Below, piece after piece: positions 47,237 through 52,260 of a DNA stretch of 64,000 bases. The position numbers were made by a program, and so were the translations under genes. The notes beneath the pieces are model-generated. The model was not told the DNA's origin and made no database searches. It saw only the letters and a program-made list of their open reading frames with translations. This DNA comes from an uncultured delta proteobacterium (GTDB lineage: Bacteria > Bdellovibrionota_C > UBA2361 > CAIXSY01). The DNA is taken from the NCBI GenBank assembly GCA_903922175.1, contig CAIXSY010000024.1, forward strand, positions 634 to 64,633, read 5' to 3'. The stretch's first letter is position 1. Every line of letters starts with the position of its first letter.

Positions 47237-48718
47237 TTAACTTTGCCGTAATGTGAAAGGCATTGTTTCCCCCATTATGCCGCGGGCTCGAAGAAAAATT
47301 ACCATAATTAAAAGGTAGGTGCAGGCAATACCAATTTTTATAACAACTTGAAGCCCAGCTTCCACTTGGCTAAAAAAAGGCTCGATAAGGGGGAGTAGGC
47401 ATGGGAGAAGAGCAATGAACGATGCCTCGAATATCGGCCAGGGAAGCTTTATTAACTTTTGACAAAACAGATATACCGCTGCTACCAATAACATGTTGGC
47501 AAAGACGGCTCCTATTGCTGCTCCGAGGACAGATAGCGTGACAATTAGGACGAGTGTGGTTAGGAAAGAACTGGAGAGGGCGACAAGCGTTATCACCGCC
47601 AGTAGTCTGGATTTTTTCTGCTGATAGATAACGAGAACGAGATTCGAGTAAATTACCCAGAAAAGCATCGCTGAGAGAAGTACTGGAATAAATTGCGATG
47701 TTGAGTGAAATGTAGGTGAGGTTAGTAATGATACTAGATTGGGAGCAAAAAGGCCGAAAGCTATTGCCGCAGCTGAAAAGCCTGCTGTCGACAAGAGGAG
47801 CATGTCCGTAACCTGACGCCAATGTTTTGTTTGTGATAGCTGAAAGAATCGAGGGTTGTTCGATGCTGCAAATGAATTAACTCCCAGGTAGAACGGCTGT
47901 ACGATATTCACTGCTACAAAATAAATGCCGGCGGCCTGTGTGGTGGTAAAATAAGAAAGCGCTATCCGATCTCCGAATCCTTTAATCCAATGCGCAAAGT
48001 TATGAGGAACTAGGGGGGTGGAGAATGAGAGCAACTCTCTTATCTTGGGTAACTTCTCCCTGGTATCTACTCTTCCCCACCAGAGTGTCAACAGTGCGGT
48101 TATGCTGTTAGAAAAAACGGCAGCTAATATGATGCTTAATGCATTGCGCTGAAAATAGATGAGAAATAAAACCGCGAGAGTTGTTGTCAGTGTGAACTGG
48201 ATTCCTCCAAAAAGAGAATATTCTTTCATTCGCTCTGATGCACGAAGCTGCTCTTGTGATGTGACAAAGAAGCCCCCGAGTAGGCCAGCCATGAGGGAGA
48301 AAAAAAGATATGGGTATACGGGGATATTGAAAATAAGTTTGTTCTTTAGCCAGATGGTTAATAAGACAACCCCAGATGCCGCGAGGAGAAATACCCGCGA
48401 TTGAAAATGAAGCGCAACTCGCAAGATGCTGCCAGGAGGGGACTCGCTGCGAAGAGAGAGAAAATAAACAGCATCTGAAATACCCAAGAAAACCAAAAGC
48501 GGAGCTAGTGTCGATACGGAAGCGCAAACTGACACGATCCCCAGGTTGTATTGATCAAGATAGTAAGTATAAATAGGCAGGAGCGCGCAGCTAATTAGTT
48601 TTTGTGCAATCGAGACAAAAAAATAGAGGCTTGAGTTTGAAAATCGTTTATTCAACTTCGGGACTCCAGAGATGCACGGCGTCTTGTCATGGCGCGCTTG
48701 AACTAACCCTGCTTGCAA
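47237..48718 (-). CDS. Wzx-like oligosaccharide flippase (MOP/polysaccharide biosynthesis protein family)
   Basis: 493 aa with about 12-14 hydrophobic segments. The N-terminal FFVSIAQKLISCALLPIYTYYLDQYNLGIVSV is typical. The start is non-ATG (TTG 48718 or TTG ~48655). Confidence 0.7.
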   Translation of the reverse strand: MQAGLVQARHDKTPCISGVPKLNKRFSNSSLYFFVSIAQKLISCALLPIYTYYLDQYNLGIVSVCASVSTLAPLLVFLGISDAVYFLSLRSESPPGSILRVALHFQSRVFLLAASGVVLLTIWLKNKLIFNIPVYPYLFFSLMAGLLGGFFVTSQEQLRASERMKEYSLFGGIQFTLTTTLAVLFLIYFQRNALSIILAAVFSNSITALLTLWWGRVDTREKLPKIRELLSFSTPLVPHNFAHWIKGFGDRIALSYFTTTQAAGIYFVAVNIVQPFYLGVNSFAASNNPRFFQLSQTKHWRQVTDMLLLSTAGFSAAAIAFGLFAPNLVSLLTSPTFHSTSQFIPVLLSAMLFWVIYSNLVLVIYQQKKSRLLAVITLVALSSSFLTTLVLIVTLSVLGAAIGAVFANMLLVAAVYLFCQKLIKLPWPIFEASFIALLPCLLPLIEPFFSQVEAGLQVVIKIGIACTYLLIMVIFLRARGIMGETMPFTLRQS

Positions 48719-49634
48719 GGTGTAACCTCTTCTCTAGGCGCACCCTGAGCGTTCTCCATAATAGAATGAGCATAGATTGAGAAGGATGAAAAAATATTTC
48801 TTGCAATAGTCCGCATAGTCCCCATGCAGCTCCTTCGAAGAAAGGTTTTCTCTCATTTTTTGGTGGCAACTCACGATAATTCGAATATAGGGCACTCAAG
48901 TAGTTTTCGGCATTTGCTGGGCCACTGAGGGTTAGTCCAGCGAATTTATAGCGAGTAATCGGAAAAACATCGATATATTTGTAGGCGGGGCGCTGGAGTG
49001 GGGTGCCAGCGCTTTTGGTATCAGCAGCCCATTCATGAAATGCGTATGTAACTCGGCAGTTGTTCGGTTCGCTTGTCAGGTAATCGAATTTCGTCAAGTA
49101 ATTTTCGGTGGTAAGCAATTCCAAAAAAATAGAAGTCTCCTCCCGCAGGCCAGCAGAAATGCCATTTAGAGCGGATTTGGTACGATTTCTGTCCTCATCT
49201 ATGAAGCCTGGTGAGTTGGGGAGAATTTTTGCATTTGAGATATCCAGCCCAAAGTGTTGGAATGAATGTCCGAGTCGGCGAAATCCATCCAGCGAGTTCA
49301 AAGACATGTGCATGTGGTCCAGGACATTTCGTGGAGATCTTGCATTGTGGGATATAAAAAAACGAGGATGCCATCTTGTTTCATCGATCAAGACCTTCCT
49401 TAATCTTTCGAAGCTTGCGGCAAGCACGCAAACGTCAGCATCATCATCCCAGGGAATAAATCCCTGATGGCGTATGGCACCAAGGAGCGTACCGCCATCC
49501 ATCCAGTAGTTTATAGCATGCTTTTTGCAAACCCAATCAAGGAATGAAAGTAAATCAAGGAGAACGAGCTGATAACGAAGGAGCCCAGGGTAGCTCTGAT
49601 ATTCGCAAGTGTGATCCGCGGGCTCGCTTATCAT
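48687..49634 (-). CDS. LicD-family phosphotransferase (CDP-alcohol to glycan transfer)
   Basis: 315 aa. The hallmark block is [28 protein letters not shown]. It shares an ATGA overlap with the upstream methyltransferase gene. Confidence 0.85.
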   Translation of the reverse strand: [315 protein letters not shown]

Positions 49635-50975: not shown

Positions 50976-51619
50976 CGTCTGCCGACTGAGTTTTTTAGAA
51001 AAAGTTTAGCTTTTGAAAAATCTCTCATGGTGTCAATATCCATAGCTCGTACGCACACGCCACGGATTGGTAGAAAACTTGCAATATGCTGATAAACGTG
51101 AAGCTTTTTATGAGCAGCGAGATGCTCACGTCGTAAGCATGCCGGCCCTAGCCATTCGTATTCGCCGCTTCTTCGAGTAAAGGAAATTACGTGCTCTTTG
51201 TCGTCGAGCCTTACATATACGGGTTCCTCCGAAGTTTTTTTTGTGAAGCCGATGAATTCCTCTGACATGGCCAGTAATCTCTTCATGTCGTCGGGGTGTA
51301 CAAGGAGGTCTCCATCGATAGAGAAAACCAAATCATGTCCGTACTGCGCGCCTAGGTAAAGACTTGCCAGGGTTTTGGTGTTGAAATAATCGTGATTATA
51401 GATGAAAAGGATGTCGTTCCTTACTTGTCGAACCACTTCTATTAGTCTGTCCGCTTCGAACCCAACTACAATACGAACATCTTCAACTTCTTTGAGCATA
51501 TCAAGTTGCCAGTGAATAATCGGACGGCCCGAAATCTCGATCAGTGATTTGGTATGACCAAGTCCCAGGCGGCTTCCGATCCCGGCACAGGTTATAACAA
51601 CTGTTTTAGGAATGTGCAT
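50972..51619 (-). CDS. Nucleotidyltransferase (LicC/IspD/MobA-like, probable cytidylyltransferase for a phospho-alcohol)
   Basis: 215 aa. The N-terminal [29 protein letters not shown] is the G-x-G-x-R...K nucleotidyltransferase loop. Confidence 0.75.
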   Translation of the reverse strand: [215 protein letters not shown]

Positions 51620-52260
51620 AATCGCTCGGCAGAATATACAGCATGTGTAGCGACGCTCCTGACCGTTCGGGAGGGGGGATGAACTCCACCGAAGGCGATC
51701 GAAATATCGGACACCATCATCGCTTGCGCATCATTGTTTCCCTCCCCAATAAAAACTACGCGCTCTGCACTACGGCGGCACTGGGCCGTCACCTGCTCTT
51801 TATTTATGATCTGGTCAAGCCGAATCACGTGGTCGTCTTTTACGCACGCCGTTGATACAAAATAAGCACAGCCTAGCCTTTTCAAGAGAGGAACAACCCA
51901 GCAATCTAGGTTTTGGGTAATAACTCGGCAATTTCTCGGGTGTGTGACGATGAACGACGCTATATGGGAATTTAATTTGGTTTTTGTAATCAAGTCTCTT
52001 ATCTGAGAGACTGGGAGTTTTCCTAAGACGTTCACTCTTTTGATGAAGGACTCAATGAAAGGTACTTTTCCCTCTATCGTATCTTTGGTGAGCGCTTCAA
52101 TATCTTCTTTAATGCCCGGGAAATTCTTAGCAATTAGAGGAAGTGTCTCCTCCTCGGTGACCGTTCCGTCAAGGTCGAAAAGAAAAAGAGTCTCTGCTAT
52201 CTTTGTTTTAAAGCTACTTGCCACATTGTTGAAGATACCCTTCTTGGAAAAACAAAACAA
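51592..52260 (-). CDS. HAD-superfamily hydrolase, subfamily IB (phosphoserine-phosphatase-like)
   Basis: Motif I is LFDLDGTVT and motif IV is [10 protein letters not shown]. The start is non-ATG (TTG 52260 or GTG 52224). Confidence 0.8.
   Translation of the reverse strand: [222 protein letters not shown]

Follow-up and report, generated by a model that had tools for sequence, protein, structure and literature searches.

A putative CDP-amino-acid cassette with a racemase and LicD in a polysaccharide locus of an uncultured delta proteobacterium

The five-gene cassette and its FtaA/FtaB-like core

A 64,000-nt stretch of DNA from an uncultured delta proteobacterium (GenBank assembly GCA_903922175.1, contig CAIXSY010000024.1, positions 634 to 64,633; hereafter the window, whose own numbering is used below) carries five co-oriented, overlapping minus-strand genes followed directly by a gene for a Wzx-type flippase. 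In the direction of transcription, they encode a HAD-IB protein resembling phosphoserine phosphatase (PSP) and FtaA (52260..51592), an FtaB-like nucleotidyltransferase (NTP transferase) of the NTP_transf_3 family (51619..50972), a pyridoxal phosphate (PLP)-independent racemase of the Asp/Glu family (50975..50262), a small class I S-adenosylmethionine (SAM) methyltransferase of a type here called MT1 (50272..49631) and a LicD-family phosphotransferase (49634..48687); the flippase gene lies at 48718..47237. Calculated from these coordinates, the successive overlaps from HAD to Wzx are 28, 4, 11, 4 and 32 nt, and the five-gene layout is that of a translationally coupled operon. An earlier interpretation made from the DNA letters only (the sequence-only reading) had described the same arrangement; its open reading frames (ORFs) and the protein motifs it quoted were all present, and its family assignments were upheld by the Pfam and NCBIfam scores of each of the five proteins and of Wzx. 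We propose that the operon, related in its first two genes to a pathway of flagellin modification, may attach an amino acid phosphate to a surface glycan through a cytidine diphosphate (CDP)-activated amino acid.

The HAD protein matched the Pfam Hydrolase and HAD families and the NCBIfam HAD-IB subfamily (50 bits, with a cut-off of 45), which was the only threshold reached; its best equivalog, SerB (TIGR00338), scored 65 bits against a cut-off of 144. Since the 222-aa ORF opens with 22 residues that lack conservation in the family, the consensus of which begins about 22 residues in, translation probably starts later, the likely site being the GTG at 52224 (210 aa, in agreement with the public gene call). 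Its best PDB match was the PSP of M. jannaschii (1f5s), which the profile of the HAD family reached at 4e-22, and the equivalents of D11, D13, E20, F49 and R56 of this enzyme were invariant in the family. Of these, E20 and R56 contact the serine moiety in the M. jannaschii enzyme, holding the amino and carboxyl groups of phosphoserine. Because such amino-acid-contacting residues are kept, an amino acid phosphate would be expected as the ligand. ThrH, the phosphoserine:homoserine phosphotransferase cited for FtaA, was absent from the PDB matches of both the protein and its family profile, so that a specific ThrH-like identity has no support from sequence. The NTP transferase (Pfam NTP_transf_3, 47.7 bits) had a single PDB match, LicC (1jyk, 3e-6), and belongs to a tight family of proteins of ~210 aa sharing 46–58% identity, with many invariant residues in the family alignment.

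The Type A flagellin of C. difficile 630 carries N-acetylglucosamine (GlcNAc)-P-N-methyl-L-threonine, which needs ftaABCD (cd0241-cd0244), and the b-type flagellin of P. aeruginosa PAO1, with pa1088-pa1091, carries deoxyhexose-P-N,N-dimethylthreonine (PMC10714395, PMC11833859, bioRxiv 10.64898/2026.02.12.704994). FtaA is a PSP-like HAD protein proposed to be a phosphoserine:threonine phosphotransferase (PSP is the best PDB match reported for CD0241 as well), and FtaB is a predicted CTP:phosphothreonine cytidylyltransferase. Both are required for CDP-threonine in C. difficile cells, and AlphaFold 3 predicts that they form a heterodimer. In vitro, FtaC N-methylates CDP-Thr and the TagF-like FtaD transfers the product. 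In PAO1, the HAD protein is PA1089, the NTP transferase PA1090 and the methyltransferase PA1088, and methylation appears to be required before transfer. The pathway was reconstituted only recently, and its authors called the FtaB homologues mostly tied to flagellar loci.

Table S1 of the fta authors lists matches to fliC, cd0241, cd0242, cd0243 and cd0244 in Fredinandcohnia sinesaloumensis LT732529 at 3062374-3071305. This range corresponds exactly to positions 1733-10664 of one of our loci (L090), beginning at the flagellin gene and ending at the P0251 stop, and since the end of this gene coincides with their cluster boundary, P0251 is taken to be their cd0242 match. The window HAD shares 40.5% identity (3e-58) with the F. 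sinesaloumensis cd0241 match (HAD203), and the window NTP transferase 48.4% identity (2e-72) with P0251. By these identities the two proteins are members of the FtaA/FtaB family. The comparison of profiles and active sites that the sequence-only reading had suggested gave a HAD with the PSP residues kept and an NTP transferase only remotely matching LicC but close to an FtaB homologue, and the homology supports its proposal of a CDP-activated, amino-acid-derived substituent, which would be methylated and perhaps D-configured, made without a kinase. The same flagellin island (L090:2684-11345) encodes both a TagF-like protein and a LicD, along with two types of methyltransferase and a further NTP transferase accompanied by an aminotransferase; two different phospho-substituents may be made there.

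As in ftaABCD, a gene for a PSP-like HAD lies directly upstream of one for a small NTP transferase, followed by a small class I methyltransferase and then a CDP-alcohol-type phosphotransferase; a kinase is likewise missing, CDP-amino-acid logic would be shared, and the order HAD-NTP-(racemase)-methyltransferase-transferase agrees. The window differs in having LicD rather than the TagF-like FtaD (no TagF-like ORF was found in the window by HMM), a two-Cys racemase between the NTP transferase and the methyltransferase, a methyltransferase of another subtype, and a setting in a Wzx polysaccharide locus, with neither fliC nor other flagellar genes among the scanned ORFs. Neither a racemase nor LicD is mentioned in the fta papers. 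In PAO1, a HAD, an NTP transferase and a methyltransferase also feed a phosphotransferase, but this enzyme is fused to a GT2 glycosyltransferase (PA1091), the target is flagellin, and both racemase and LicD are lacking. The sequence-only reading had not recognized the gene combination from any characterised pathway; this has to be revised, since three of the five roles (HAD phosphotransfer, cytidylylation and methylation) have counterparts in ftaABCD and pa1088-pa1091, while LicD takes the place of FtaD.

The window LicD scored 88.3 bits to Pfam PF04991 (threshold 22.6), and its only PDB match was fukutin-related protein (FKRP; 6kaj), the aligned region including the WDDDAD motif. As had been claimed, a LicA-type kinase is missing: there was no choline or alcohol kinase among the ORFs scanned with Pfam, which are a part of the window's total, and the sole kinase-like match among them was a HipA toxin 45 kb away. 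Neither LicA choline kinase nor LicB permease was found in the Pfam and NCBIfam matches of the module and the scanned flanking ORFs, and LicB, TarI/J, TagD, a Gtp1-like reductase and flagellar genes were all absent from the scanned window ORFs. The lic operon, which decorates LOS and teichoic acids with phosphocholine, resembles the window operon in its LicC-like cytidylyltransferase and in a LicD phosphotransferase acting on a glycan, but the window operon lacks the LicA kinase and the LicB transporter, has a HAD-IB protein, a racemase and a methyltransferase in their stead, and contains an NTP transferase of a separate, tight family.

Related loci, the racemase and the methyltransferase

The NTP transferase family was searched for in a set with one genome for each species. 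Relatives turned up in 230 genomes, and the survey counts given below refer to the best 80 of these 230 species loci. They belong to Bacteroidales, Negativicutes, Melainabacteria, Desulfovibrionaceae, Helicobacter, Paenibacillus, Lachnospiraceae, Akkermansia and one bacterium of the candidate phyla radiation (CPR). Selenomonas, Paenibacillus and Mailhella, for which Table S1 of the fta authors gives non-flagellar matches, were present in this survey too. Cultivable carriers include Anaerovibrio lipolyticus LB2005, Dysgonomonas termitidis, Parabacteroides acidifaciens and Anaeromicropila herbilytica, the last with the order HAD-NTP-racemase-methyltransferase. The HAD gene lies directly upstream of the NTP transferase gene in 78 of the 80 loci, and the two overlap by 28 nt in the window and in every locus where the overlap was readable. 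In six loci (L024, L045, L071 and L079-L081, from Bacteroidales and Prevotellaceae metagenome-assembled genomes) they are naturally fused into ORFs of ~412 aa. The fusions and the constant overlap fit the heterodimer predicted for FtaA and FtaB. LicD was found in 32 loci and a TagF-like protein in 37, with one or the other in 65 and in 40 of the 45 full-length loci. The description of the module as LicD-centred was therefore not retained: its constant part is the HAD-NTP pair, while LicD and TagF-like transferases can replace one another.

A two-Cys racemase-family gene was present within 8 kb in 35 loci, immediately downstream of the NTP transferase gene and on the same strand in 30. The window-type methyltransferase MT1 occurred in 37 loci (37–46% identity), following the NTP transferase or the racemase gene, and a second type, MT2, in 17. 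The exact order HAD-NTP-racemase-methyltransferase-LicD is repeated in L005 and L043. In L005, the closest replica of the five-gene arrangement, the racemase (7627-8184) is truncated to 185 aa and lacks the second Cys motif, and the LicD region (8996-13225) is interrupted by an rve-type insertion sequence. Other arrangements include LicD, LicD, methyltransferase, HAD and NTP transferase in an Anaerovibrio locus, and HAD, NTP transferase, two hexapeptide acetyltransferases and LicD in a Prevotella locus. A TagD-like cytidylyltransferase fused to a GFO_IDH_MocA oxidoreductase recurs beside the HAD-NTP-LicD cassettes of Anaerovibrio and Prevotella (L006:7627-8940 and L007:10527-11855). The Aminotran_5 gene of the Prevotella locus was considered as a SerC and rejected, its best scores being to aminoethylphosphonate (AEP) or glyoxylate aminotransferases, under their cut-offs.

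The racemase of the window scored 105.5 bits to Pfam Asp_Glu_race and passed the NCBIfam asp_race subfamily TIGR00035 (130 bits, cut-off 93). Its alignment with the aspartate racemase of P. horikoshii (1jfl, 3.9e-33) brought both Cys motifs (PCNSA and GCTE) into register, so that both catalytic cysteines, as noted earlier, are present. The top-scoring curated family was CuyB cysteate racemase (NF052483; 175 bits, under the cut-off of 190), and all racemase clades in HAD-NTP loci scored best to it. CuyB of Bilophila wadsworthia is also PLP-independent and has two Cys; its substrates must carry an anionic side chain, and it is inactive on Ser and Cys. The window differs from the CuyB setting in having neither a cuyA sulfo-lyase nor a sulfonate context, its racemase being part of a glycan-decoration operon. 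Most racemases of the survey loci are only 21–30% identical to that of the window, which indicates that several sequence groups of the family share one slot after the NTP transferase gene. The sequence-only reading had held that its proposal would fall if the racemase or the HAD proved to be a chance neighbour, not conserved beside LicD in relatives; the survey of gene neighbourhoods it had recommended, with the counts of racemase and LicD near the HAD-NTP pair given above, does not bear this out, and the racemase is a recurrent component of the cassette.

Racemases sharing 44–50% identity with that of the window were found in a flagellar glycosylation island of C. botulinum, an O-antigen-like locus of Methylomonas sp. 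LL1 and a metagenomic contig. In all three, an NTP transferase and an ApgM-like protein are encoded on one side and a TagF-like or CDP-alcohol (CDP-OH) phosphotransferase on the other, with methyltransferases nearby. A metagenome scan with an alignment of the window-clade racemases as the query gave a similar picture: among contigs long enough to judge, most racemases with at least 36% identity were in modules with an NTP transferase, a methyltransferase and LicD, TagF or CDP-OH proteins, while 69 of 80 matches, at 35% identity or less, were generic Asp racemases outside such modules. The modules of C. botulinum and Methylomonas, with an ApgM-like protein, a PF00483 NTP transferase, a racemase, a methyltransferase and a TagF-like or CDP-OH protein, share the racemase clade with the window and the same logic of NTP transferase, methyltransferase and phosphotransferase. 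They differ in having an ApgM-subfamily protein in place of the HAD and an NTP transferase only ~27% identical to that of the window. This parallel type of module, apparently uncharacterised, is represented by L001-L004, L092 and L096-L099, the locus in the C. botulinum island being one of its cases; it combines a PF00483 NTP transferase with MT2, a window-clade racemase and a TagF-like or CDP-OH protein, and in some loci an ApgM-like protein is encoded as well. The ApgM-like protein scored 362 bits to apgM and 347 bits to a "proposed homoserine kinase" family, under the cut-off of 446. A phosphoglycerate-derived substituent, suggested by this ApgM-like partner, was rejected because ApgM-free versions exist (L092 and L098) and the racemase is an amino acid racemase.

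The methyltransferase matched Pfam Methyltransf_25, 11 and 12, all class I SAM families. It shares 35.8% identity with MT213 of the F. sinesaloumensis flagellar island, which lies just outside the cluster bounds given by the fta authors; their cd0243 match in that island is apparently MT253, which is 24% identical to MT213 and gave no BLAST match to the window protein. The window methyltransferase agrees with FtaC in position and size but differs in sequence subtype.

For the same 29 loci, the mutual information (MI) between alignment columns and racemase presence was calculated for the methyltransferase, the NTP transferase and the HAD, without correction for phylogeny. The methyltransferase had 13 columns with MI >0.5 (top value 0.82, the mean maximum after shuffling the labels being 0.51), and in 24 of 29 cases its nearest neighbour shared the racemase label, whereas neither the NTP transferase nor the HAD had any such column (top values 0.36 and 0.45). 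At three racemase-associated positions, the window methyltransferase has the residues of the racemase-containing loci (L25, H116 and A167). This co-variation, restricted to the methyltransferase, fits a racemase that would act after cytidylylation and before methylation.

The surrounding glycan region

The window matches a metagenome scaffold of freshwater style, scaffold_326 of ENA ERZ18648440. The module is embedded in a large glycan-biosynthesis region that Pfam scans showed to be rich in glycosyltransferases, including GT2, GT4, two GT87-like proteins and a PMT_2 GT-C enzyme, along with two Acyl_transf_3 proteins and an MBOAT plus a GDSL protein. The flippase (Pfam Polysacc_synt, 53.1 bits), with its gene overlapping that of LicD, places the module in an undecaprenyl diphosphate (Und-PP)-linked polysaccharide pathway; glycosyltransferase, acyltransferase and PglF/D/E-like genes flank it. 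The latter, at 40956-43754 on the plus strand, encode a PglF-like dehydratase, a PglD-like acetyltransferase and a PglE-like DegT aminotransferase in a row, which implies that the glycan also contains a di-N-acetylated sugar of the bacillosamine type. Two proteins of ~700 aa with a spermine/spermidine-synthase-like domain are encoded at 21329-23443 (plus strand) and 31015-33189 (minus strand), in the vicinity of the PMT_2 GT-C, GT87-like and MBOAT/GDSL genes, an unusual set for a polysaccharide locus. Large ORFs of 350–675 aa without a Pfam match at the thresholds used occur at 12178-16477, 17970-19613, 33356-38799, 52829-54743 and 60187-62214.

The G+C content is 0.45–0.48 across 46000-54000 and 0.50–0.53 on either side, which suggests horizontal acquisition of the cassette. 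Genes for an SNF2 helicase, the HipA toxin, an ERCC4+HhH nuclease, an AAA_14/DUF4143 ATPase and an AbiEii-like protein are located at 1197-8424 and 62259-63059; these appear, by their families, to be defence or mobile-element-like genes on both flanks of the glycan region. A weak promoter-like site (TTGATA-16-TAGAGT, 52303..52330, minus strand) lies upstream of the HAD gene, and a scan of the region for promoters and terminators gave no more sites than shuffled sequences did.

Proposed pathway and its alternatives

We consider it fairly probable, from homology and gene order, that the module uses a CDP-amino acid to decorate a Wzx-dependent surface glycan with an N-methylated hydroxy-amino acid in phosphodiester linkage, and the attached amino acid would probably be D-configured. 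In the proposed scheme, the PSP-like HAD would form an O-phospho-amino acid. Phosphoserine would probably be the phosphate donor, as has been suggested for FtaA, so that no kinase would be needed. The NTP transferase, as a CTP:phospho-amino-acid cytidylyltransferase, would join this product with CTP to give the CDP-amino acid. The two-Cys racemase would then invert C-alpha of the phospho- or CDP-amino acid, most likely in the activated form with its anionic side chain; this position in the pathway is suggested by the gene order, the requirement of CuyB for an anionic side chain and the co-variation of the methyltransferase only. Next, the methyltransferase would methylate the amine of the CDP-amino acid. 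LicD would then use this CDP donor to place the amino acid phosphate on a sugar of the lipid-linked repeat unit, which Wzx would flip afterwards. We infer the amino acid used, the substrate and position of the racemase, N- rather than O-methylation and the acceptor from these comparisons; the amino acid may be threonine, as in the Fta pathway, serine or homoserine, the last being hinted at by the "proposed homoserine kinase" relatives of the ApgM-like proteins.

Several points weigh against this scheme. The connection to CD0241-CD0244 and PA1088-PA1091 runs through one intermediate homologue, that of F. sinesaloumensis, and the phosphotransferase role of the HAD is hypothetical even for FtaA; ThrH, moreover, was not among the PDB matches of the HAD family profile. 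The methyltransferases scored as cd0243-like by the fta authors are of a type other than MT1, so N-methylation is an assumption, and the co-variation of methyltransferase and racemase could reflect co-transfer of adjacent genes instead of a change of substrate. Also, ~56% of the HAD-NTP loci have no racemase, for which reason we regard it as an optional tailoring step. In the literature searched, the coverage of which was incomplete, neither a description of this variant nor a glycan with such a substituent was found, nor anything relevant on LicD with a racemase, on CDP-serine or CDP-homoserine, or on phospho-amino-acid substituents of O-antigens or teichoic acids.

LicD families usually transfer phosphocholine, ribitol-P or glycerol-P, and the PDB matches of the window proteins, with LicC as the sole match of the NTP transferase and the ribitol-phosphate transferase FKRP as the best of LicD, would also suit an ordinary module for a CDP-alcohol (CDP-choline, CDP-glycerol, CDP-2-glycerol or CDP-ribitol), the racemase and methyltransferase serving something else. 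The lack of a classical kinase does not speak against such a module, being shared with the pneumococcal CDP-2-glycerol pathway (gtp1-3 plus wchX), and some related loci carry the TagD-like cytidylyltransferase/oxidoreductase fusion. However, the scanned window ORFs include none of LicA, LicB, TarI/J, TagD or the reductase that the CDP-2-glycerol pathway has, the NTP transferase shares 48% identity with an FtaB homologue but has only a remote resemblance to LicC, and the HAD retains the amino-acid-binding residues of PSP. In addition, a racemase would have no role on choline, which is achiral, or on glycerol and ribitol phosphates, which have no alpha-amino acid centre, yet it is present in 35 of the 80 loci. 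We therefore regard an ordinary CDP-alcohol module as quite improbable. Still less probable is a racemase that merely happens to lie there, for instance one supplying D-Asp or D-Glu for peptidoglycan. Asp/Glu racemases are common in general, the more distant metagenomic matches lie outside such modules and over half of the HAD-NTP loci do without one, but the racemase gene overlaps both of its neighbours (by 4 and 11 nt), distinct racemase groups fill the slot after the NTP transferase gene in 30 loci across phyla, and the closest relatives of the window racemase are mostly in modules with an NTP transferase, a methyltransferase and a phosphotransferase. The survey effectively excludes a chance neighbour.

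An Fta-like pathway could also operate with the racemase upstream, acting on a free amino acid and so providing the HAD with D-Ser, D-allo-Thr or D-Hse, for instance, to phosphorylate. A free amino acid is the simplest substrate for a racemase, and the window enzyme reaches the generic "amino acid racemase" subfamily threshold; a preference for homoserine has been reported for some members of the Asp/Glu family, YgeA of E. coli being one. On the other side, no differences of a specificity type distinguish the HAD and NTP transferase sequences of loci with a racemase from those of loci without one, whereas the methyltransferase has such differences. The CuyB family, the nearest curated one, is restricted to substrates with an anionic side chain and does not take Ser or Cys, and the racemase gene is placed after that of the NTP transferase in 30 of the 35 loci. 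Racemization of the free amino acid appears rather unlikely, and we favour the phospho- or CDP-amino acid as the substrate. A racemase working on a nucleotide-activated amino acid, that is, a "CDP-amino-acid epimerase", would be an activity not yet described.

Taken from the homologies, the new element would be the CDP-amino-acid logic of the Fta pathway, adapted to surface polysaccharides by way of LicD and a racemase, and widespread. Many gut and rumen anaerobes have the HAD-NTP core in capsule or O-antigen-like loci, where it appears as a mobile cassette, paired with LicD about as often as with TagF-like transferases and frequently accompanied by a racemase. As a tentative extension, which we put somewhat below an even chance, CDP-amino acids may be a widespread currency for non-flagellar surface polysaccharides in more than 200 species, with ~40% of the cassettes using a CDP-amino-acid epimerase to make D-configured N-methyl amino-acid phosphodiesters. 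If true, such decoration would occur in taxa that include Bacteroidales, Negativicutes, Melainabacteria, Desulfovibrionaceae and CPR bacteria, and would involve two new activities, a LicD that uses a CDP-amino acid and a racemase that acts on a phospho- or CDP-amino acid. The natural HAD-NTP fusions would explain why FtaB is not soluble unless FtaA is present, and could be used to reconstitute the first two steps. Amino acid phosphates, possibly D-configured, would then join the known substituents of bacterial glycans and would represent immunologically relevant epitopes in abundant gut commensals.

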